This document shows, piece by piece, positions 1,543-58,526 of a stretch of 64,000 bases of DNA. Source of the DNA: Haloarculaceae archaeon (GTDB lineage Archaea > Halobacteriota > Halobacteria > Halobacteriales > Haloarculaceae); assembly GCA_036626435.1 (NCBI GenBank), contig JAZKRS010000004.1, positions 2,517 through 66,516 of the forward strand, in the 5' to 3' direction. A model generated the notes under the pieces. The model saw nothing but the letters and a program-made list of their open reading frames with translations. It was not told the origin of the DNA and did no database searches. The translations under genes were made by a program, and so were the position numbers. Positions within the stretch are counted from its first letter, which is position 1. Every line of letters starts with the position of its first letter.

Positions 1543-2346
1543 TCACATCGCCATGCCCCCGCCCAGCGGCTGGTAGTGCGGGAGCATGGGGTGTGGAATG
1601 TGGATCCCGACTGCCATCAGCCCGTGTGCCAGCAGGACGTACCCCAGAACGAGAAAGAGGGCACCGAGCAGCCGATGGAGCCGCTGGCGGTGGACCGCAT
1701 CCACCGACTCGATGAGCGTTCCGTAGGCGAAGACTGCTGGAATCGTGCCGATTCCCAGCGCTGCGAGCGCGATAGCGCCGGAGACTGCCGACCCAGTTGC
1801 GAACGCGAACAGGTAGGCGGGATAGAGTATTGGGCAGGGCAACAGCCCGTGGAGCGCTCCCAGCCCGACGATACCCGGGCTGTTTACGAACCGCTGTACC
1901 CGAACGGCGAGCCAGTTCGTCACCCGGCCGACACCGGGGAGCTGGATGCCTGCGGCCCCGCCCCCGACCAGATACTTCGCGCCAGCCACGATCACGAACA
2001 CGCCGATCGCGATCCCGACACCGCCCCGGACCAGGTCGGCCACGGCGGTCAGCTGATCCGCAGTGACGAAGACGAACCCGCCGAGCCCACCGAAGGCAGC
2101 GCCCAGCAGCGTGTAGCTGGCTGCCCGGCCCACGTTGAACAGGGCGTGCTGGCGGACCTCGTACAGCGTGAGATGCCCACGCGGTTCGGGGCTGCTCTCG
2201 GTGGCCATCCCGCCGTCCGGGCGCGGGGTCATTCGTTCCGAGTACATCGTCACGAGCGGCCCACACATCCCGATACAGTGGGCTCCGCCGAGTAACCCGA
2301 TAGCGAGGAACAGCAGGACATCCACCCGGAATATGGCTTCGAGCAT
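1543..2346 (-). CDS. DsbD_2 / TauE-SafE-like integral membrane protein
   Basis: 267-aa multi-TM ORF with the N-terminal GGAHCIGMCGPL motif. Confidence 0.75.
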   Translation of the reverse strand: MLEAIFRVDVLLFLAIGLLGGAHCIGMCGPLVTMYSERMTPRPDGGMATESSPEPRGHLTLYEVRQHALFNVGRAASYTLLGAAFGGLGGFVFVTADQLTAVADLVRGGVGIAIGVFVIVAGAKYLVGGGAAGIQLPGVGRVTNWLAVRVQRFVNSPGIVGLGALHGLLPCPILYPAYLFAFATGSAVSGAIALAALGIGTIPAVFAYGTLIESVDAVHRQRLHRLLGALFLVLGYVLLAHGLMAVGIHIPHPMLPHYQPLGGGMAM

Positions 2347-2409
2347 GTCCGTCTATCCCTTGTAACGTGTGCACCCAATTAGCAGTTCTGGTACGAACGG
2401 CGAACCAGG

Positions 2410-2493
2410 TCATACTAACGGCTATAAGCCCGTGAGCGATGTCGATCCCCCGTGGGGTCGACTATGCTCACGAAGTTATAGCCGTCAGTATCA
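2410..2493. mobile_element. MITE family A, copy A1 (78-nt palindromic core 2413-2490 flanked by TCA/TCA)
   Basis: Core runs tactaacggctataagcccgtgagc...gctcacgaagttatagccgtcagta. It has 6 mismatches to copy A2 over 78 nt (hand alignment). The flanking TCA 2410-2412 and 2491-2493 are direct duplicates. Confidence 0.75.
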
Positions 2494-3252
2494 GGCCTCG
2501 TCCTCGTCCTCGGTGCCTCGCTGCGAGGCGTCGCTGACTGCCACCTGCGCCGCCCGGATCACCTTCCCGCCCATCTCGTAGCCCGGTCGGTGGACCTCGG
2601 CGATCGCCCCCTCGGGCTGTGCCGAGGCGATGGTCGCCAGCGCCTCGTGGCGCTGGGGATCCACGTCCCCACCCACCTCCGGGTCGATCCGTTCGACGTT
2701 CTCGCGCTGGAGTTGCTCGTCGAACTGTTTGAGCGTCGTCTCGACGCCGCCCCGGATCTCCGCGTCCTCGCCCTGTTCGAGCGCACGCTCGAGGTTGTCG
2801 CGGACATCGAGCAGACGCTCGACGAGGTCCTCGGTCGCGCGTTGCTTTTCTTCGGCCATGCGCTCCTTCTGGCGCTTCTTGTAGTTCTCGAAGTCAGCCT
2901 GCTTGCGTGCGAGGCGCGATTCGAGGTCGTCGATCTCCTCCGCACGCGATTCGACCTGGCCCTCTAAGGCGGCGACGCGCTGGCGCAGCAGCGCGATCCC
3001 GCGTGCGGTCGTCTCCGGCGATGTCTCGCGGACCCGGTCGAGCAGCTCCTCCTCGACGTCGAGGTCCCCCGGGTCCGGCACTGTGCTGTCCTCGTCGTCC
3101 GTCCTCTCCTCGCCGCCGGCGTCGCCGATGATCTCCGAGAGCGCTTCGTCGGGATCGCCCTCTGGCTCCTCGGCGATATCCTCGACTGCGTCGGCTCGGG
3201 GGGTCACGTCCTCGCTGGGGTTCTCAGAGTCGGCCGCGTCCTGCTCGCTCAT
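2491..3252 (-). CDS. grpE: nucleotide exchange factor GrpE
   Basis: Internal ATG 3252 (MSEQDAADSEN...) of the 599-aa track ORF. It has an acidic N-terminus, the coiled coil ...ADFENYKKRQKERMAEEK..., and the C-terminal ...VHRPGYEMGGKVIRAAQVAV. The stop (TCA on +, 2491-2493) is the right flank of MITE A1. Confidence 0.9.
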   Translation of the reverse strand: MSEQDAADSENPSEDVTPRADAVEDIAEEPEGDPDEALSEIIGDAGGEERTDDEDSTVPDPGDLDVEEELLDRVRETSPETTARGIALLRQRVAALEGQVESRAEEIDDLESRLARKQADFENYKKRQKERMAEEKQRATEDLVERLLDVRDNLERALEQGEDAEIRGGVETTLKQFDEQLQRENVERIDPEVGGDVDPQRHEALATIASAQPEGAIAEVHRPGYEMGGKVIRAAQVAVSDASQRGTEDEDEA

Positions 3253-3333: not shown

Positions 3334-4383
3334 GTGAACTCGGAGTTCGCCTTCGAACTGCAGGTCTGCCAGTGGGCCGAGCGCCACTGGCCCCCCGGTT
3401 CCGGCCGTGAAATTCCCGTCCTCGTCGCGCGTCAGCTGGGAACGAAGCGGCGGCGCTGGGATACCATCGTCCTCGAGTGTGACCCCGCGGCCCTCGCAGC
3501 CCGGGCCAGGTTCGGCACACAGCGACTCGACTCCGACCTCCTCCACGTCGTCCGGAACGCACCTGAGGTGTGGGAGTGGTACCGCGACGCACTTCCCGAC
3601 CCGGGCTACCCCTGGCGGTACGTCAGGGAGGCAGTCCACCGCGCGGCCGACCGGGGGGTCGTCGAGACCCGGAAGGCCGACACCCGGATCCAGCTCCGCC
3701 GGAAGTGGCCGTACCCGGACTGGGTCGAGCGGATTGTCGCCGTCGAAAACAAGCCCGACCTCGACGCGAGCGCGGCTCGGGCGCTCGTCGGACAGATCGA
3801 ACACGACGTCGCGCTCGCACTCGCAGACGAGGTGTGGGTCGCCACCAGCAGGGCGGACGGGCGGATCGAGCCAGCACTCTTCGAGGATATCCCGGTCGAG
3901 GCGGGGATACTGACCGTCGAGCCGGGTGCCCGCGGCGCCAGCGCGGTTGAGGTGGTCTGGCAACCCCGGACGCTCGCAGTCGACGAGCCGGGGACGCGCA
4001 TCCTCGACCGGCCACAGGGGGGCGGCCACGACGTCTCTGGGGCGCGCTTCGAGTACGCGGACCCGGACTGGAAGGCGGCGAAGCGACTCGAGATCGCCGA
4101 GCGGGCCTACGAACGGGGCTGGCGGTCCTACGCCGACGCGATGCGCCCCGACTGCCGGGGCTTCCGCCTGCAACCTGGCGAAAGCGTCGCACGGCCGTAC
4201 TGTGCGGCCAAGGGTCGTCACCAGACGCCCGGGGAGTGTGCTGGCTCCTGTCCCGACTTCGAGCCTGAGCCGCCGACCTGGCGCCAGCACGGCTGGCCCA
4301 TCGAAGGCGGGCCCGGAGCCGCCATCAAGCGCCTGCTCGACCGCCAGCGGGCACGCCAGCGGCCGGACGCACGGGAGACATGA
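3334..4383 (+). CDS. conserved hypothetical protein with PD-(D/E)xK-type nuclease signature and C-terminal Cys cluster
   Basis: 349-aa ORF. YPDWVERIVAVENKPDLD gives PD-x9-E-x-K. The C-terminus has Cys-x16-Cys-x11-Cys-x3-Cys (CRGF...YCAAKG...GECAGSCPDF). Confidence 0.7.
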   Translation: MNSEFAFELQVCQWAERHWPPGSGREIPVLVARQLGTKRRRWDTIVLECDPAALAARARFGTQRLDSDLLHVVRNAPEVWEWYRDALPDPGYPWRYVREAVHRAADRGVVETRKADTRIQLRRKWPYPDWVERIVAVENKPDLDASAARALVGQIEHDVALALADEVWVATSRADGRIEPALFEDIPVEAGILTVEPGARGASAVEVVWQPRTLAVDEPGTRILDRPQGGGHDVSGARFEYADPDWKAAKRLEIAERAYERGWRSYADAMRPDCRGFRLQPGESVARPYCAAKGRHQTPGECAGSCPDFEPEPPTWRQHGWPIEGGPGAAIKRLLDRQRARQRPDARET

Positions 4384-9248: not shown

Positions 9249-9647
9249 GTGGAAATCTCGAATAAACTCCTGTGTCTGTTCAGTGCTGAAGTAACCGCGG
9301 ACGGGGACCGCTACGTCGTCGAGGTCCCGAAGCGTGAAATCGAGACAGGATCTATCGATCCCTCTCACACCTACCGTGTCGCGCTCATCAGAGCCGACGA
9401 GCCGGAGTCCGGGGGCGAGGAGACGACCGAGACATCGCCGTCGGAGCCCCAACCGCCTGTCGAACCCGGCGAGATCCGGTACGTCGAGATCGAGGACATC
9501 GGCAAGCAGGGCGACGGCATCGCACGGGTCGAACGCGGGTACGTCATCATCGTTCCCGGCGCCGAGATCGGCGAACGCGTCAAGGTCGAGGTCACCGAGG
9601 TCAAGTCGAACTTCGCGGTCGGCGAGATAATCGACGAAAACGTCTGA
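9249..9647 (+). CDS. TRAM domain protein
   Basis: 132 aa. The C-terminal ...EIEDIGKQGDGIARVERGYVIIVPGAEIGERVKVEVTEV is TRAM-like. The stop TGA 9645-9647 is the left flanking triplet of MITE A2. Confidence 0.8.
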   Translation: MEISNKLLCLFSAEVTADGDRYVVEVPKREIETGSIDPSHTYRVALIRADEPESGGEETTETSPSEPQPPVEPGEIRYVEIEDIGKQGDGIARVERGYVIIVPGAEIGERVKVEVTEVKSNFAVGEIIDENV

Positions 9648-9728
9648 TACTGACGGCTATAAGCCCGTGAGCGATTTCGACCCCCCGCGGGGTCGAATCT
9701 GCTCACGAAGTTATAGCCGTCAGTATGA
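9645..9728. mobile_element. MITE family A, copy A2 (core 9648-9725 flanked by TGA/TGA)
   Basis: Core runs tactgacggctataagcccgtgagcgatttcgaccccccgcggggtcgaatctgctcacgaagttatagccgtcagta. Direct TGA at 9645-9647 and 9726-9728. Confidence 0.8.
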
Positions 9729-12653: not shown

Positions 12654-12712
12654 GGGGCGAATCCGACGTCAAAGACAGATATTCACGGTTAGAGCGGGAG
12701 TCCACTGACAAG

Positions 12713-12733
12713 CCTCGGGGCTTGACCCCGAGG
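12713..12733 (+). repeat. solo hairpin related to the IS200/IS605 element ends
   Basis: cctcggggcttgaccccgagg is the reverse-complement form of the 21-nt hairpin ccccggggtcaagccccgggg found at both ends of the tnpB element. It carries a paired C>T / G>A change that keeps the stem. The flank ggttgttgaccggcag resembles the left-end flank ggttgaagccgacag. Confidence 0.6.
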
Positions 12734-12764
12734 TTGTTGACCGGCAGTGCACTCGACGGGTCCG

Positions 12765-16538: not shown

Positions 16539-17327
16539 ATGGCGTCACCCTGGGGTATGAGCGAGGAAGGGGCGACGCTCGTCGGCGTCGTCGGCGACGA
16601 TAGTGACGCCGCGAGGGCCCTGTCTGCGGGCGGCGTTCGGGTCGTCACCGGTGACGTCGACGCGGTCGTTGACGCGGAGCCGTTGGTTATCGCCGCCGTC
16701 GGGGAGCGAGCGCTGACAGCTCTCGCCCGCCGGAACCCCACCGTCCCGGTGCTCCCGGTCGATGCCGGGCGCGGGGTCCGATCGGCCCCGCCGTCAGCGC
16801 TCCCGGACGCGGCCGAACGGATCCTTGCCGGCGACTGGCAAATTGACCAGCATCCCCTCGTGGCCGTCGAGGCCCCGGACGGCACCCGGACGATCGGCGC
16901 CCTCGACGCGATGCTCGTCACCGCAGAGCCCGCCGAAATCTCCGAGTACACGGTCAGGTCCGGCGGGGAGCGCGTGGCTCGGTTCCGCGCGGATGGCGTG
17001 GTGGTCGCGACGCCCGCGGGGACAGCGGGCTACGCCCGGGCGGCCGGTGGGCCGGTTGCAGCCCCGGGGATGGACGTGTTCGTCGTCGTTCCGGTCTCGC
17101 CGTTCGCGACGACGCTCGACCACTGGGTCGTTCCTCTCGGGGACCTCACGGTGACAGTCGAGCGCGACGAGGCGCCAGTCGAGGCGCTGGTCGACGATCG
17201 GTCGATCGGCACCGTCCAGTCCGGCGATCCGATCCGTCTCGACCCGGCGGGGCGTCTCGAAGTTGTGCGTCTCCCGGAGAGCGTCTCACCGTTCGGCCGG
17301 GGCAACGCGAAATTGGAAAAACTCTAA
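16539..17327 (+). CDS. NAD(+) kinase-like protein
   Basis: Start 16539 or 16557 (MSEEGATLVGVVGDD...). Motifs ...VVVATPAGTAGYARAAGGP... and ...VVVPVSPF... resemble ATP-NAD kinases. The N-terminal extension of the track ORF is an artefact. Confidence 0.75.
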   Translation: MASPWGMSEEGATLVGVVGDDSDAARALSAGGVRVVTGDVDAVVDAEPLVIAAVGERALTALARRNPTVPVLPVDAGRGVRSAPPSALPDAAERILAGDWQIDQHPLVAVEAPDGTRTIGALDAMLVTAEPAEISEYTVRSGGERVARFRADGVVVATPAGTAGYARAAGGPVAAPGMDVFVVVPVSPFATTLDHWVVPLGDLTVTVERDEAPVEALVDDRSIGTVQSGDPIRLDPAGRLEVVRLPESVSPFGRGNAKLEKL

Positions 17328-17869: not shown

Positions 17870-18901
17870 ATGGACGTCGACTGGGAGACGCCCGAGGAGT
17901 GGGAGACGGTCACGACGCTGGATGCACACACGGGCGGGGAGCCGCTCCGCGTCGTGACCGGCGGGCTGCCCGAGATAGCGGGGGAGACGATACTCGAAAA
18001 GCGCCGGTACATGGAGTCGACTCTCGACGAGTACCGGACCAGGCTGATGTGGGAGCCACGCGGGCACGCCGACATGTACGGCGCAGTCCTCACCGAGCCA
18101 GTCACCGACGACGCCGACTTCGGCGTCCTCTTTCTCCACAACGACGGCTACTCCACGATGTGTGGCCACGGCGTCGTCGCGCTCGGCAAAGTCGCTGTCG
18201 AGGCCGGCGTCGTCGACCCGACCCCGCCGGTCACGACTGTCGGGATGGACACGCCCGCCGGCCTCGTCACCGCGGAGGTCGAGACCGACGGGGACGGGAC
18301 TGCCGGGAGCGTGACCTTCGAGAACGTCCCCTCCTTCGTCTACGAGACGGACTGTACCGTCGACGTTCCCGCCCTCGGGGCTATCGAGTACGACCTCGCC
18401 TTTGGGGGCGCGTTCTACGCCTACTGTGACGCCGGGGACCTGGGCGTCGATGTCGAGCCCGGATCCGTCGAGGAACTCGTCAGCGTCGGCCGCGCCGTCA
18501 AGCAGCGAGTCAGGGAAACACGCGATATCGCCCATCCCGAGGAGGCCGACCTCGGCTTTCTGTATGGCACAATAATCTGCGAGGACGCGGACGCGCCGGG
18601 TGTCGACTCGCGGAACGTCTGTATCTTCGCCGACGGGGAAGTCGATCGCAGCCCGACGGGGACGGGCGTCTCCGGGCGCGTGGCGCTCCGTGCCGCCGCC
18701 GGCGACCTCGTTCCCGGCGAGGAGTTCGTCGTCGAGAGCATCGTGGGATCGACGTTCACGGGCTCCGTCGAGGAGCGCACGACCTACGGCGGCTACGATG
18801 CCGTCGTCCCGCGTGTCACGGGCGACGCACACGTCTTCGGCCGGTCGGAGTTCGTCTTCGATCCGGCGGATTCGCTGAAAGACGGCTTCCTGATCCGGTG
18901 A
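17870..18901 (+). CDS. proline racemase superfamily enzyme, Cys/Thr catalytic pair (likely trans-3-hydroxy-L-proline dehydratase type)
   Basis: 343 aa. First catalytic motif STMCGHG; the second is DRSPTGTG, with Thr where racemases/epimerases have Cys. Confidence 0.8.
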   Translation: MDVDWETPEEWETVTTLDAHTGGEPLRVVTGGLPEIAGETILEKRRYMESTLDEYRTRLMWEPRGHADMYGAVLTEPVTDDADFGVLFLHNDGYSTMCGHGVVALGKVAVEAGVVDPTPPVTTVGMDTPAGLVTAEVETDGDGTAGSVTFENVPSFVYETDCTVDVPALGAIEYDLAFGGAFYAYCDAGDLGVDVEPGSVEELVSVGRAVKQRVRETRDIAHPEEADLGFLYGTIICEDADAPGVDSRNVCIFADGEVDRSPTGTGVSGRVALRAAAGDLVPGEEFVVESIVGSTFTGSVEERTTYGGYDAVVPRVTGDAHVFGRSEFVFDPADSLKDGFLIR

Positions 18902-19236: not shown

Positions 19237-19250
19237 AACGCACCCCGGGG

Positions 19251-20492
19251 TCAAGCCCCGGGGCTTCCTGCTTCAACGACGCGCTTTGCATCCACCGCCT
19301 CCCGATGAGGGGTGAACGTAGGGAGCGCAGTCTGCACAGGCGTTGATTCGGAGCGTCCCGCCCCTAACTGTTTCAAACCACGATTGAGAATAGTCTTCGC
19401 TGCATTGAGATCGCGGTCTTCCGTGTGTCCGCACGCTGGACACGAATGCTCGCGTACCCAGATCGGCTTCGCCGTTTCGACACCACAAACCGAACACTCT
19501 TTGGTCGTCCCGCGAGAGTCGACCGTCTCAACGTGTGTGCCGTGCAATTCGCCTTTGTACTTCAGAAGTTCGAGGAACCGCGACCACGCGGCGTCTTGCT
19601 TGTTCTTGGCGTTCTGCCCGGTTTCCAGCATCGGCTTCACATCCAAGTCCTCAACAACCACAACATCGTACTCTTTCACCAGCCACGTCGTCAGTTTGTG
19701 CTGGTAGTCGCGTACCTTCCGCTTGATTTTGCGTTTGGCTCGGGCTACCTGTTGGCGTTGTTTCTCCCAGTTGGCAGAGCCGTGTTCTTTCCGATCGAGT
19801 TTCCGCTGTTCGCGTGCGTAGCGGTCGTACTCGTCGGACAAATCTAACGTATCTACGGACAGGTTTTCAGACGTGTGGATGTAGCTGGTGATGCCGAGGT
19901 CAACACCCACACAGTCTTTGGGGTCAATCTCATCTAGTGACGGTTTCTCGGGTGTGTCTTCCACAGTAGTGACCAGTGAGACGTACCACTCGCCCGTTGT
20001 CTCTTTCTTGAGGATGACCTCATCAATGTCCTCTGCTGGTGGAACGTCGCGTTCTGCCCGGAGTTTGAACCAACCGATCTTTTCGAGTCGGAGTCGCACG
20101 AATCGGTCGTCGCCCGTGTTGTGATCCACGTTCCAGCGACGGGGTTGATTGTACGACACTGACCGAAACTCGCCCGCACCTTGCCACTGCAACCGCCCGA
20201 CGTTGTAGCCTTTGTTTCGACGTTCTTGCAGTGTTTCCAGATCGGTGTATATCTGGCTGATGGCTTGTTGAGCGGCATGTTGTGATGGTTCTGCAAAGGT
20301 CGGCCACTGGTCTGCCCACGTGGTGAGTTTGCCGTGTTGGTCGTACTCTGATGGGCGGTCGTTGTAGTCCGAGTTATAGTAGTCTCGGACGGCGTGGTTG
20401 CGAATCTGCCGAAGGATATTGATCTGGTGCCACGCTTCGCTTGCCACATCGTCGGGCAGGTACGCGCGGAAGCGAAGCGTGTGTTTCACCAT
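19251..20492 (-). CDS. tnpB: TnpB (IS605 OrfB-type RNA-guided endonuclease)
   Basis: 413 aa. RuvC-I VGVDLGITSY, RuvC-II VVVEDLDVK, zinc finger CSVCG...CPACG, RuvC-III DRDLNAAKTI. The stop lies in the loop of the right-end hairpin. Confidence 0.9.
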   Translation of the reverse strand: MVKHTLRFRAYLPDDVASEAWHQINILRQIRNHAVRDYYNSDYNDRPSEYDQHGKLTTWADQWPTFAEPSQHAAQQAISQIYTDLETLQERRNKGYNVGRLQWQGAGEFRSVSYNQPRRWNVDHNTGDDRFVRLRLEKIGWFKLRAERDVPPAEDIDEVILKKETTGEWYVSLVTTVEDTPEKPSLDEIDPKDCVGVDLGITSYIHTSENLSVDTLDLSDEYDRYAREQRKLDRKEHGSANWEKQRQQVARAKRKIKRKVRDYQHKLTTWLVKEYDVVVVEDLDVKPMLETGQNAKNKQDAAWSRFLELLKYKGELHGTHVETVDSRGTTKECSVCGVETAKPIWVREHSCPACGHTEDRDLNAAKTILNRGLKQLGAGRSESTPVQTALPTFTPHREAVDAKRVVEAGSPGA

Positions 20493-20657: not shown

Positions 20658-20708
20658 GCTGTCGGCTTCAACCCCGGGGTCAAGCCCCGGGGCAGTCGCC
20701 TTGACCGC

Positions 20709-21019: not shown

Positions 21020-21997
21020 GTGCCGTCGTTTCGCTCGGATCCCCTCGACGAACTGGTCATCCCGGACGGGACCACCGTCGAGGAACACGACCTGGTGGCA
21101 GATGGGGACGTCATCGTCGGCGGACAGAGCACCGTCGAGTTCGGTGTCCGAGGCAGGAGTGTCATCGCCGGGGAGCGCGTTTCCTTCGGCGGTCACATCG
21201 AGGCCGAGGGCGACTGCCGGCTCGATATGTGGTGTGACGTCGCCGAGGACGTCCTCGTCGCCGAGGACGCCTACCTGGGCGAGCGCGTCCACGTCGGCGG
21301 CGAACTGAAGGTCGCCGGCGACCTCGATATCGGCGACGACGTCGACATCGAGGACGGGTTCGAGGCAAACGGCTGGATCGTCATCCGCAACCCCATGCCG
21401 ACCATCGTCTTCCTCTTCGTCTACCTCTCACAGCTGCTTCGCATCGGCGAGGAGGAGGCGGCAGAGGAGATGCTCTCGGCGATGATGGACGGGAGCGACG
21501 AGGGTCAGCCCGTCGTGATTCCGCGGGGGTCCCAGGTGGGCGACGACGCCTGGCGCGTCTCCACGCCCGCCAGAGTCGGCGACGCGTGCCGTCTCCACGG
21601 CAACGTCCGCGCCGCCTCGCTGGTCGTCGGGCGCGAGACCGAGGTGTTCGGCAGCCTCCGGGCGAAGGAGGGCATCACCGTCGGCGCGGGGACGCAGGTG
21701 ACGGGCAACGTCACGACCCGCGAGGGGACGGTCCGGATCGGGCCCGGCGCCGAGATCCGGGGGGACGTCTCCGGCGCGTTCGTCGAACTCCACCACGAGG
21801 CCGAAGTCGAGGGCGCGATTCGGGCATCCGAGGAGACGACCATCGTCTCCGAACCCGTTCTCGACGATTCGGTCATCGAGTCCGTCGACACGCCAGCTGA
21901 TCCCGACGAGGTGGACACGTCCACCACCGGGGCGGGTGACGAGCGCGACGAGACCGATGGCGAAGCCACCGTAGAGCACTCGGAGCCGCCGGACTAG
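21020..21997 (+). CDS. polymer-forming cytoskeletal (bactofilin-like) protein with two beta-helix modules split by a hydrophobic helix
   Basis: GTG 21020 (VPSFRSDPLDELVIPDGTTVEEHDL...). Repeats ...GDVIVGGQSTVEFGVRGRSVIAGERVSFGG... and ...GNVRAASLVVGRETEVFGSLRAKEGITVGAG... flank the central NPMPTIVFLFVYLSQLL. The tail is acidic. Confidence 0.75.
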   Translation: MPSFRSDPLDELVIPDGTTVEEHDLVADGDVIVGGQSTVEFGVRGRSVIAGERVSFGGHIEAEGDCRLDMWCDVAEDVLVAEDAYLGERVHVGGELKVAGDLDIGDDVDIEDGFEANGWIVIRNPMPTIVFLFVYLSQLLRIGEEEAAEEMLSAMMDGSDEGQPVVIPRGSQVGDDAWRVSTPARVGDACRLHGNVRAASLVVGRETEVFGSLRAKEGITVGAGTQVTGNVTTREGTVRIGPGAEIRGDVSGAFVELHHEAEVEGAIRASEETTIVSEPVLDDSVIESVDTPADPDEVDTSTTGAGDERDETDGEATVEHSEPPD

Positions 21998-22000
21998 TTC

Positions 22001-22035
22001 TGATACTGTCGCCGAACGGCTGCTGACACGAGATA
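22001..22035. repeat. degenerate MITE family B-like copy
   Basis: TGA+tactgtcgccgaacggc... is identical to the family B left arm for the first 8 core nt (11 with the TGA). The right arm is decayed (ctgacacgagata). It starts 4 nt after the TAG stop of the bactofilin-like gene. Confidence 0.4.
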
Positions 22036-26942: not shown

Positions 26943-26952
26943 TACTGACGGC
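26943..26952. repeat. solo 10-nt match to the MITE family A left terminus
   Basis: tactgacggc is identical to the first 10 nt of copies A2/A3. No matching right arm lies nearby. Confidence 0.3.
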
Positions 26953-27026
26953 CGACAGGACAGAGGGTCGTGAGGAACCGGACAGCGTCCGGTGACGAAC
27001 GACCCGGACACGGCGGCCACCTCTTC

Positions 27027-27073
27027 AAATACTGGCGGGCGAAAATCCGCAGGATTTTCGTCCGACAGTATCA
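27027..27073. mobile_element. MITE family B, copy B1 (core 27030-27070)
   Basis: tactggcgggcgaaaatccgcaggattttcgtccgacagta is the reverse complement of copy B2 except in the apical loop. Flanks are AAA and TCA. TCA 27071-27073 is the stop of the GT2 gene. Confidence 0.75.
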
Positions 27074-30885: not shown

Positions 30886-30898
30886 GCCGCCAGTATCA
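30886..30898. repeat. solo right terminus of MITE family B on the leuD stop codon
   Basis: gccgccagta+TCA compares with the B2 right end cgcccgccagta+TCA. TCA 30896-30898 is the leuD stop. Confidence 0.5.
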
Positions 30899-55322: not shown

Positions 55323-56153
55323 ATGGCGGCCCTGGAGAATCTCGTCCTGGTCTTTATCGCCGGGCTGATAACTGCGCTGGCGACCGGGCTGGGTGCACTC
55401 CCGTTTTTTGTGTTCGACGACATCAGCACGCGCTGGAACGTCGCGCTGTGGGGGTTCGCGTCGGGAATCATGGTGTCGGCGTCGCTTTTCGGCCTCGTCA
55501 TGGAGGGGCTGGCCGTCGTCGAGGGTGGGGTGATTGACGCCGCCCTGGCTATCGGTCCCGGCGTCGTGGCCGGCGTCGTTCTCGTGGTTGTGGGCCACGA
55601 ACTCCTCGAAGGGGCAGACGTCGACCCCAGGCAGTATCAGGAGGCTGATTTCAAGAAGCTGGTACTCGTTCTGGGGATCCTGACGGTACACAGCTTTCCG
55701 GAGGGCGTCGCAGTCGGGGTCTCCTTTGCCGAACTCGGCCTGGCTGACGTCGCCTCCGGCGAGGCGATCGCGCTTGTCGGGTTGACCCTCCCCGTTCTGG
55801 CGGTGTTTATGACCGTCGCCATCTCCATCCACAACATCCCCGAAGGCGTGGCGATATCCATCCCCTTGCGGTCGATGGGAGTCAGCGAGTGGCGGATGGT
55901 CTGGTGGGCTGTCTTCTCGAGCCTGCCCCAGCCGATCGGCGCGGTCATCGCCTACTACTTCGTGACCCTGGCCCGGCAGTTTCTCCCCTTTGGCTTCGGC
56001 TTCGCCGCGGGCGCGATGGTCTACCTCGTGCTCACGGAGTTCATCCCCGAGGCGCTCGATCTCGGGGAGGGGCTCCCGAACGGTGGGCGACCGCAACTGA
56101 CCGCCGGGGTCGCGATCGGGGTGCTCGTGATGGTCCCCCTCGCGTTCATCTAG
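55323..56153 (+). CDS. ZIP family metal transporter
   Basis: ATG 55323 (MAALENLVLVFIAGLITALATG...). HNIPEG motif. Confidence 0.9.
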   Translation: MAALENLVLVFIAGLITALATGLGALPFFVFDDISTRWNVALWGFASGIMVSASLFGLVMEGLAVVEGGVIDAALAIGPGVVAGVVLVVVGHELLEGADVDPRQYQEADFKKLVLVLGILTVHSFPEGVAVGVSFAELGLADVASGEAIALVGLTLPVLAVFMTVAISIHNIPEGVAISIPLRSMGVSEWRMVWWAVFSSLPQPIGAVIAYYFVTLARQFLPFGFGFAAGAMVYLVLTEFIPEALDLGEGLPNGGRPQLTAGVAIGVLVMVPLAFI

Positions 56154-56893: not shown

Positions 56894-57664
56894 ATGACGG
56901 GGAAAGACGAGTACTACAACAGAGCGAAACAGGAGGGGTATCGCGCCCGCTCCGCGTACAAGCTCAAACAGCTAGACGAGACGGCGGACCTGCTCGGTGA
57001 GGGGCGGACGGTCGTCGACCTCGGCGCCGCGCCGGGCGGCTGGCTCCAGGTCGCCGCCGAGCAGGTCGGTCCCGAGGGAACCGTGATCGGCGTCGACCGC
57101 CAGCGTATCGACGCGCTGGACGAGCCGGACGCCACTGTCGAGTTCGTCCGCGGGGACATCACCGAGGCCGACACCAAGGCGACCATCCGGGAGGTCGTCG
57201 ACGACACGGTCGACGTGGTGCTCTCGGACATGGCTCCGAACATGAGCGGCGAGTACGACCTCGATCACGCCCGCTCGGTCCACCTCGCGCGGCAGGCTTT
57301 CGAGGTCGCGAGCGACCTGCTCGGGCCCGGCGGGGACCTCGCGGTGAAGGTCTTCGACGGGCGGGACCTGGCCGACCTGGAGGCGGAGATCGACGCCGAG
57401 TTCGAGTACGTCCGGCAGGTCCGGCCCGCTGCCTCCCGGGACGCGTCCTCGGAACTGTACCTCGTCGCGAAAAACCGGCTCACCGCACCCGTCTCGGTCG
57501 GCGAGGAGGTCGACCTCGACATCGTCGACGTGGGAACGGAGGGCGACGGTATCGCCAAGGTCGAGGGCTTTACCCTGTTCGTCGAGGGCGTCGCGGAAGG
57601 CGACAGCGTCACCGCCGAGATCACGGACATCAAGCCGCGGTACGGGTTCGCGAAGCCGGTCTGA
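56894..57664 (+). CDS. rlmE: 23S rRNA 2'-O-ribose methyltransferase RlmE/FtsJ with C-terminal TRAM domain
   Basis: 256 aa. DLGAAPGGW SAM motif, VLSDMAPN, and a C-terminal ...GTEGDGIAKVEGFTLFVEGVAEGDSVTAEITDIK TRAM domain. The stop TGA 57662-57664 is the left flank of MITE B2. Confidence 0.9.
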   Translation: MTGKDEYYNRAKQEGYRARSAYKLKQLDETADLLGEGRTVVDLGAAPGGWLQVAAEQVGPEGTVIGVDRQRIDALDEPDATVEFVRGDITEADTKATIREVVDDTVDVVLSDMAPNMSGEYDLDHARSVHLARQAFEVASDLLGPGGDLAVKVFDGRDLADLEAEIDAEFEYVRQVRPAASRDASSELYLVAKNRLTAPVSVGEEVDLDIVDVGTEGDGIAKVEGFTLFVEGVAEGDSVTAEITDIKPRYGFAKPV

Positions 57665-57707
57665 TACTGTCGGACGAAAATCCCCGGATTTTCGCCCGCC
57701 AGTATCA
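57662..57707. mobile_element. MITE family B, copy B2 (40-nt core 57665-57704)
   Basis: TGA+tactgtcggacgaaaatccccggattttcgcccgccagta+TCA. The left triplet is the rlmE stop and the right triplet is the pdxT stop (minus strand). Confidence 0.8.
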
Positions 57708-58304
57708 AACGGGCTGTGTCGCCGCGTCGAAGAAGGCGAGGTCGTGGATCCGAGAATCGTCAGTCAGTTCGGGGTGGAATGAGGTGCCGACAACCGGTCC
57801 CTGGCGGACTGCGACGGGGTTGTCATCCCAGGTGGCGAGGGCCTCGACGCTCTCGGCGACGTCGGCGACGACCGGCGCGCGGATGAACACCGCGGGGAAG
57901 GGTGCCTCAAGGCCGTCGACGTCCAGGGGCGCCTCGAAGCTGTCCTTCTGTCGGCCAAAGGCGTTGCGCTCGATGCTCACGTCGAGAATCCCCAGTTCGT
58001 CGACGCGGTCGTCCCTGGGGTCGGTGCTGGCGACGATCAGCCCGGCACACGTCGCCAGCATCGGCTTGCCTGCTTCGACGTGGTCGACAATCTCCGGGGC
58101 GATGTCCTCCCGGTCGAGCAGCCGGGAGATGGCTGTCGACTCGCCCCCCGGCATGAGCAAGACGTCACACTCGGGGACGATTCCGGCCGTTCGGATCTCC
58201 CGGACGTCGCTTTCCCGGCCGTGAGCGCCCGCGGCGCGCCTGATCGCTGTCGCGTGTTCGCTGACGTCGCCCTGGACGGCGACGACACCCGCGGTGAGAG
58301 TCAT
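57705..58304 (-). CDS. pdxT: pyridoxal 5'-phosphate synthase glutaminase subunit
   Basis: 199 aa. ...LLMPGGESTA...ATCAGLI...FHPE... triad context. Confidence 0.9.
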   Translation of the reverse strand: MTLTAGVVAVQGDVSEHATAIRRAAGAHGRESDVREIRTAGIVPECDVLLMPGGESTAISRLLDREDIAPEIVDHVEAGKPMLATCAGLIVASTDPRDDRVDELGILDVSIERNAFGRQKDSFEAPLDVDGLEAPFPAVFIRAPVVADVAESVEALATWDDNPVAVRQGPVVGTSFHPELTDDSRIHDLAFFDAATQPV

Positions 58305-58358: not shown

Positions 58359-58442
58359 TCATACTGACGGCTATGACTTTGTGAGCATAGTCGACCCCGC
58401 GGGGGGTCGAACTTGCTCATGGGCTTATAGCCGTTAGTATCA
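58359..58442. mobile_element. MITE family A, copy A3 (inverted; core 58362-58439 flanked by TCA/TCA)
   Basis: The reverse complement differs from A2 at 8 of 78 nt. Direct TCA at 58359-58361 and 58440-58442. Confidence 0.8.
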
Positions 58443-58526
58443 CCTCTCGTCGGCGTACAGGTAGAGGTCGGCCAGGACCACTATCAACACGACCTGTGTC
58501 GCCTTGTCGACGTAGTCGACGGTCAT
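58440..58526 (-). CDS. possible 28-aa micro-ORF terminated by the MITE A3 flanking triplet
   Basis: MTVDYVDKATQVVLIVVLADLYLYADER. The stop is TCA 58440-58442. There is no homology evidence, so this is speculative. Confidence 0.2.
   Translation of the reverse strand: MTVDYVDKATQVVLIVVLADLYLYADER

Follow-up and report, generated by a model that had tools for sequence, protein, structure and literature searches.

The stretch of DNA considered here (the window) comprises 64,000 nucleotides (nt) of contig JAZKRS010000004.1, positions 2,517 to 66,516, from assembly GCA_036626435.1 of a Haloarculaceae archaeon. Its G+C content is 66%. Two convergent genes, rlmE and pdxT, lie near the right end and are separated by a short hairpin with the design of one end of a miniature inverted-repeat transposable element (MITE). 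The gene rlmE, which encodes FtsJ and TRAM domains, occupies the open reading frame (ORF) 56894-57664 on the plus strand and ends in a TGA stop at 57662-57664. The gene pdxT (ORF 57705-58304) is on the minus strand, and its TGA stop reads TCA on the plus strand (57705-57707). The 40-nt hairpin, tactgtcggacgaaaatcc/cc/ggattttcgcccgccagta (57665-57704, plus strand), fills the whole gap and is here called B-short. A preliminary description had placed the two stops directly against this palindrome and had reported the same stop-flanking geometry at several other loci in the window. The coordinates are exact at B-short and agree on re-checking at all the others, and Pfam agrees with the gene names given earlier (GrpE, TRAM, GT2, LeuD and bactofilin). 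The elements belong to what is apparently an undescribed MITE superfamily, of a well-known kind, in Haloarculaceae; the literature searched holds no description of a MITE family with TACTG termini.

B-short corresponds to terminal hairpin 1 of the family-B MITEs, with a tip arm TACTGTCGGACGAAAATCC and an internal arm GGATTTTCGCCCGCCAGTA. Its strong stem contains the motif TTTTC on each strand. The predicted RNA fold has an energy of -32.8 kcal/mol for the plus strand and -39.2 kcal/mol for the minus strand (z about -6 to -7). The palindrome continues weakly into both coding ends (57654-57715).

Family A is represented in the window by three copies, each a 78-nt imperfect palindrome between direct repeats, which are TCA/TCA, TGA/TGA and TCA/TCA for A1, A2 and A3 respectively. 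A1 (2413-2490, plus strand) has its target site duplication (TSD) at 2410-2412 and 2491-2493, and the right-hand copy is the grpE stop. In A2 (9648-9725, plus strand; TSD at 9645-9647 and 9726-9728) the left-hand copy is the stop of a TRAM-domain gene. A3 (58362-58439, minus strand) lies 58 nt upstream of pdxT, and its TSD (TCA on the plus strand at 58359-58361 and 58440-58442, thus TGA on the minus strand) falls in the stop of a DUF7475 gene remnant. A fourth copy, A4, is found on the same contig just beyond the window (L060 3492-3569, TGA/TGA; loci fetched for comparison are cited by L numbers).

Perfect 3-bp direct repeats of the form TNA (TGA, TCA, TTA or TAA) flank 27 copies of the superfamily. 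Fifteen of these belong to family A: A1-A3, A4, L003, L010, L020 and eight on a plasmid (L020 among the eight). This plasmid is the RefSeq-annotated pLC1Hm-01 of Halomicrobium sp. LC1Hm, on which a TAA duplication is also seen. Eleven full-length family-B copies have perfect flanks, with TGA in seven (L008, L009, L013, L021, L023, L031 and L034), TCA in two (L005 and L028) and TTA in two (L007 and a further insertion in L023). Family D contributes one perfect duplication (L007 2968-3186, TGA). The target has the wider context C-TNA-G: of 19 sites, 15 have G at +1 and none has A or T there, and 10 have C at -1.

Close relatives were recovered by way of their PdxT, RlmE and LeuD homologs, and empty sites exist among them. 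At the A3 site the window reads GAGAGG-TGA-A3-TGA-CCGGG...AGACGAG, and the comparison with relatives that had been proposed as a check shows a single TGA in its place: GAGCGG-TGA-CGCGAC-AGACGAG in L040 (94% PdxT identity) and GAGCGC-TGA-TAGCGCC-AGACGAG in L041-43 (92%). The elements are therefore mobile, and they target and duplicate TNA. A target of T(C/G)A, duplicated on insertion, had been suggested; the duplication stands and the motif has to be widened, since TTA and TAA are also used, to TNA within C-TNA-G. The expectation that insertion into a TGA regenerates the stop was borne out as well: orthologs lacking elements keep their native stops at the same codon, and no gene is truncated.

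Two other readings of the flanks were rejected. A TA duplication of the Tc1/IS630 type would make it a coincidence, repeated in each copy, that the outer T-N-A agrees on the two sides. If there were no duplication, and TGA/TCA were part of the palindrome, full-length copies should not all have direct flanks; only two bare hairpins have TGA/TCA. A genuine TA duplication does occur in the lineage. L040 carries at about 1165-1250 a different 81-nt palindrome (TA-TACCGGTCGACGTAAGCCC...CGTCGACCGGTA-TA), present in this 94% relative only and inserted in the same DUF7475 remnant; it is a second, Tc1/IS630-like MITE family.

The termini also provide a stop of their own. The terminus reads TAC TGA (CGG) and so supplies an in-frame TGA two codons past the target triplet; a TCA or TTA codon hit in frame is followed by the end of the protein two residues on. 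At L015 6423 a coding ORF ends in ...GYFSY, with the TCA used as a serine codon and the TGA of the element as the stop.

The same termini, TACTGNCGG...CCGNCAGTA, are found at both ends of families A and B and of the sub-families C and D. The consensus of the terminal inverted repeat is TACTGNCGG-(nnn)-TAA-(ntn)-CGTG, and that of the terminus can also be written TACTGNCGGNNNTAANTNCGTG. Element sizes range from 40 to 220 nt, too short for a transposase. There are eight copies or remnants on this contig and twelve on one Halomicrobium plasmid, and the elements are present in at least six metagenome-assembled genomes (MAGs). Terminal inverted repeats, a TSD of fixed length, short dispersed multicopy sequences and filled versus empty sites thus all occur together, as in MITEs.

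The termini are over-represented in the window. TACTGNCGG has 10 matches against 1.63 expected (none of 100 shuffles reaches 10), and TSATACTG has 11 against 0.72. An earlier rough estimate had put the chance expectation of such a 9-mer at about 0.2; for CAGTATCAG the computed expectation is 0.13, with seven seen. One match of CAGTATCAG, at 55632 inside a ZIP gene, is probably due to chance.

Species-representative genomes and JGI/ENA metagenomes were scanned for the hairpin core of family B, giving 15 and 14 loci respectively, all of them haloarchaeal. In almost all of these the hairpin is the left end only of an element of about 155-220 nt. The layout is TNA, hairpin 1 (tip arm TACTGNCGGACGAAAATCC, loop, internal arm GGATTTTCGCC(C)GCCAGTA), a variable spacer, a second structured region (module 2), a variable stretch and ...CACGTACTTCTGTCCGNCAGTA, followed by TNA. 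Module 2 has two stems in every sub-family, and 93.8% of its cells are paired. Six pairs show changes on both sides (compensatory), a number not reached in 500 shuffles. The mismatches are mostly A.C (six, versus one G.T), so the complementary strand would pair better. Rfam gives no match in the window at the gathering threshold; at relaxed thresholds there is none for family A, and for hairpin 1 only a miRNA-like chance match below threshold.

In family A each of the two arms has an inward-facing CTATAA some 10 nt in from its tip (2423-2428, 2475-2480, 9658-9663 and 9710-9715). This motif resembles a TATA box in a GC-rich genome, and several family-A copies lie 28-125 nt upstream of a downstream gene. 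Outward transcription from a family-A element is conceivable.

Elements can be nested. L007 contains a nested cluster (2012-3186) in which a family-D element (TACTGGTGGCTGTA...) is split by a B element with a TTA duplication; the second family-D copy in this locus (2968-3186, TGA/TGA) adjoins a small zinc-ribbon gene. L032 (from about 3715) and L034 (from about 5790) share an IS-like end, CATCCGTCTTTAGCTAAGCCAGAAACCGCGTGACAG, which in L032 splits a B element just past hairpin 1.

The flanks of B-short had likewise been taken for a target duplication. Here that reading fails: the TGA and TCA are the stops of the two genes themselves, and relatives have a spacer between them. L041-43 (92% PdxT identity) contain the same convergent pair with both stops at the same codons, a GC-rich 64-nt spacer without a T run, and no B-short. 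In L040 (94%) a slightly decayed B-short stands in place of the entire spacer. All close PdxT homologs have 199 amino acids (aa), and the rlmE orthologs in L003 and L004 (80-82% identity, other neighbours) stop at the same codon with no element. The idea that the 64-nt spacer is itself a decayed element was rejected, as its local alignment to the element scores no better than shuffles. With two native stops as flanks and an unrelated spacer in relatives, a deletion or replacement event is required. B-short replaced the ancestral spacer by insertion plus deletion. The 85% relatives L044 and L061, examined as an outgroup for polarity, do not have the pdxT/rlmE gene order.

Only one other bare hairpin 1 was found; it lies in L019, between two convergent coding ORFs, and its flanks are also TGA and TCA. 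In relatives without the element (L042, about 660-745) the last 8 nt of the two genes are identical (CGGTCTGA) and form an inverted repeat bounding the native spacer; this may be a coincidence or a factor in the deletion. A metagenome contig of another relative (L002, 95% RlmE identity) stops exactly at TGATACTGTCG, the kind of break that a repeat is expected to cause. Its end (3861-3869) reads ...GTC TGA TACTGTCG, the start of an element, and such repeats break short-read assemblies. Downstream of rlmE in the 82% relative, intergenic DNA contains a short (GGAAC)n tandem repeat (L003 2030-2060).

The remaining copies in the window are shortened or decayed. B1 is a shortened family-B MITE of 128 nt (26943-27070, minus strand) with hairpin 1 at 27030-27070, beside the stop of a GT2 gene (27071-27073). 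Its module 2 lies at about 26959-27012 and its far terminus at 26943-26951, where the flank is CGG and there is no TSD. The hairpin had been described as a separate mini-element; it is the terminal hairpin of the longer one, and the 'extra' TACTGACGG at 26943 is the other terminus. A solo terminus (TACTGGCGG, 30887-30895, minus strand) abuts the leuD stop (30896-30898). TGA-TTCTGTCGG already occupies this position in relatives at 93-95% identity and a 90% relative has a plain TGA, so this solo end represents an old, decaying insertion at a stop. Another remnant, TGA plus the decayed terminus TACTGTCGC (22001-22012, plus strand), lies 3 nt past the TAG stop (21995-21997) of a bactofilin-like gene; its 22004-22012 portion matches the terminus in 8 of 9 positions.

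The 'micro-ORF' whose stop was reported at the right flank of A3 is where it was said to be (58440-58526, minus strand, 28 aa), and its identity can be amended. What survives is the 3' end of a gene for a DUF7475 membrane protein, which has 101 aa in relatives and is intact in L041 (2149-2454). The window and L040 both lack about 230 nt of the 5' part, and the L040 remnant has lost its ATG as well.

Taken together, these data are best read as non-autonomous, TNA-duplicating MITEs of a single Haloarculaceae superfamily, whose bias towards gene ends reflects survival at stops (probability roughly 0.8). A transposase supplied in trans would make staggered cuts, 3 bp apart, at TNA, with C-TNA-G as the favoured context, and repair would duplicate the triplet. 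In a gene-dense genome of 66% G+C, TNA is scarce outside genes, and hits on TGA or TAA would restore the stop on the gene side. Stop-restoring insertions would then be among the few that are tolerated, so that about half of the copies abut a stop.

For the rlmE-pdxT locus two steps are envisaged. A family-B element would first have inserted at the rlmE stop. The end of its hairpin (CAGTA) would then have been joined, to the nucleotide, with the TCA at the end of pdxT, the next tolerated TNA, so that everything else in the element, the TGA on its right and the ancestral 64-nt spacer were lost. This second step was most likely an adjacent deletion mediated by the transposase, with an internal inverted repeat used as an end; that both junctions are exact, element end against TNA triplet, favours it. 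Recombination between two oppositely oriented elements, one at each stop, is less likely: the retained right arm is of the internal-arm type, which would demand a crossover inside the last 5 nt. Ordinary deletions also trim elements, as in a plasmid half-element (159284-159336) and a 20-nt plasmid remnant between convergent stops (18551-18570).

The type of transposase can be suggested from the 3-bp TNA duplication alone. The IS1031 group of the IS5 family prefers 5'-TNA-3' and exclusively makes a 3-bp direct repeat (PMC12016507, PMC1676026), and an IS5/IS1031-type DDE transposase may be the mobiliser. In all loci and the whole Halomicrobium plasmid, termini paired at distances of 500-4000 nt and flanked by the same TNA turned out to be nested MITEs only. 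Against plasmids, blastn of a long family-B element gave no match, and blastn of A2 found MITE copies on one Halomicrobium plasmid only. A scan of viral contigs with the superfamily terminus consensus gave five chance matches, none with TNA flanks. The low-GC islands of the window contain a TnpB element and no DDE transposase.

It should be asked how strong the association with stops really is. On this contig six of eight copies or remnants abut the stop of a coding-like or annotated ORF. For family B elsewhere (six MAGs and metagenomes) the figure is 14 of 26 independent insertions, and on the RefSeq-annotated plasmid it is five of twelve copies, plus two solo remnants. The null models take TGA and TAA stops as a share of the TNA sites outside genes, with genes in the window called by G+C at third codon positions (GC3); TNA density in the non-coding DNA is 0.032 per nt. 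When all non-coding TNA sites are counted, 12-18% lie at stops, and the observed share of about 50% is a 3-4-fold excess (P about 1e-4). When only short gaps are counted and promoter zones of 40-60 nt are removed, the expected share rises to 37-43%; the probability of 13 or more of 26 is then 0.12 with a 40-nt zone and 0.30 with a 60-nt zone. The 'unusual density' of elements at stop codons noted at the outset is therefore overstated, as about half of the copies in every data set are to be compared with 37-43% under the 3'-side null. Stop placement can largely be predicted from the choice of target when a genome is compact and GC-rich. Copies with perfect duplications lie far from any stop in L005, L008, L009, L021, L028 and L034, at A4, and at plasmid positions 17150, 63246 and 185139.

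Several observations weigh against this account. The GC3-based gene calls are crude, and the expected stop share is known only within 0.12-0.43. Among one-sided family-B cases it is hairpin 1 that adjoins the stop in 9-10 and the far end in two, and the flank in element orientation is TGA in 19 cases, TCA in five and TTA in two. An orientation bias of this kind is not predicted by a purely passive filter; it could come from an asymmetric insertion complex or from selection. The stems of module 2 are kept by compensatory changes, which a DDE transposase that binds double-stranded ends does not need. The adjacent-deletion step is drawn from two loci only. The window, some 300 kb of fetched loci, the whole 224-kb Halomicrobium plasmid and viral contigs yielded no autonomous element with such ends, and the TACTG termini are unlike the ISLrh repeat GAACCTGTCTAGTATCT, the one IS1031-group repeat compared.

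The strongest competitor, which has perhaps one chance in five, is exaptation. Hairpins would be kept at gene ends as terminators or protective 3'-end structures, with transposition merely delivering them; the rlmE-pdxT copy would act in both directions, and selection would lie behind both the stop bias and the orientation bias. The intergenic motif for termination in Haloferax volcanii is a run of T closed by a C; T5C gives 95% termination and a hairpin alone 59% (PMC7237163). The family-B hairpin has TTTTC on both strands of a strong stem, so that a terminator role may be plausible. The spacer that B-short replaced had no T run, and hairpin 1 is stop-proximal in 9-10 of 11-12 one-sided cases. 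However, about half of the copies are away from stops, some of them in divergent promoter regions (L003, plasmid 148226 and 154994), and family A has no T4 run. Copies also decay unmaintained to solo ends (leuD 30887, the remnant at 22004 and plasmid 18551). The excess of TGA over TCA and TTA could be a property of an asymmetric transposase complex, and this by itself would give the orientation bias. The two substitutions in the B-short of L040 keep the RNA hairpin in the pdxT sense (-27.5 versus -28.4 kcal/mol) and weaken the other strand (-16.2 versus -23.9), which is anecdotal; the chance that both fall on the same strand is 0.5. A scan for bacterial-type terminators and promoters found nothing and was uninformative.

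Somewhat less probable is a wider form of this idea, in which family-B elements would carry functional RNA structure from place to place. On this view hairpin 1 would be a portable bidirectional terminator or stabiliser and module 2 a structured RNA or single-stranded DNA signal, both riding on a DDE-type MITE. Hosts would then co-opt hairpin 1 at gene ends, up to the replacement of whole convergent spacers.

Active targeting, in which a transposase or host factor recognises features of gene ends beyond TNA and enrichment takes place at insertion rather than through survival, is improbable. The 3-4-fold excess over the all-non-coding null and the extension of the context to C-TNA-G speak for it. 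The observed share nevertheless fits the 3'-side null (37-43%, P 0.12-0.30), many copies with perfect duplications are far from stops, and one copy sits inside another MITE (L007).

Finally, the window contains a TnpB/IS1341-type gene (19254-20492, minus strand, 413 aa; Pfam OrfB_IS605 and Cas12f1-like TNB) in a low-GC island, flanked on both sides by the hairpin ccccggggtcaagccccgggg (about 19240-19262 and 20671-20692), with a third similar palindrome near 12700-12740. It is very improbable that the TACTG elements are PATEs related to it, that is, palindrome-associated relics of IS200/IS605-type elements moved in single-stranded form: although they are rich in hairpins and the compensatory changes in module 2 are as in single-strand structures, IS200/IS605 elements and PATEs have neither terminal inverted repeats nor target duplications (PMC3119063), the TACTG elements have both (27 perfect duplications), and the palindromes ccccggggtcaagccccgggg are unrelated to them in sequence.

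Survival of TNA-duplicating MITEs at stops would explain a sequence pattern that recurs conspicuously in the genomes and MAGs of Haloarculaceae and that also causes contig breaks. It offers an example of a triplet-specific transposon funnelled onto stop codons in a GC-rich compact genome, and the DNA between convergent genes can be remodelled by such elements until a single hairpin is left. For annotation, TNA followed directly by TACTGNCGG can be taken as an element end, and the adjoining TGA or TAA is often a genuine stop. Archaeal termination signals are poorly catalogued, and the hairpins, if they do end transcripts, would be an example of mobile terminators in that domain. Most deserving of further work are the structure conserved inside the elements and the possible terminator role.

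Among known systems, the MITEs, SMRs and PATEs of Haloquadratum walsbyi and Halobacterium salinarum are likewise small, transposase-free haloarchaeal repeats, with strain-specific insertions, nesting and decay by deletion (PMC3119063, PMC7002104). In contrast to the TACTG elements, SMR-A makes no duplication, PATEs lack terminal repeats and MITEHsal makes duplications of 3-7 bp with no fixed sequence; the portions of these sources consulted mention no TNA duplication, TACTG termini or stop-codon placement (PMC3119063, PMC7002104). The IS1031 group of the IS5 family shares the preference for TNA, the exclusive 3-bp repeat and terminal inverted repeats. It differs in the ends, which are of the GA/GG type in the one repeat compared and begin with TACTG here, and the present elements are archaeal, 40-220 nt long and found with no transposase gene.

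Correia elements of Neisseria are palindromic MITEs of about 100-150 nt that are abundant at gene ends. They have a fixed TA target and duplicate 2 bp (TA), and their reported effects on transcription and transcript stability have been demonstrated experimentally. Unlike the TACTG elements, which are known here from sequence alone, they are bacterial, and their sequence and duplication are different. The PIF/Harbinger transposons of eukaryotes differ from the present elements in that here the central base is mostly G or C and the host is a haloarchaeon. They too make a 3-bp T-N-A duplication (TAA or TTA), and with the Tourist MITEs they have short, palindromic, non-autonomous derivatives that are often found near genes.

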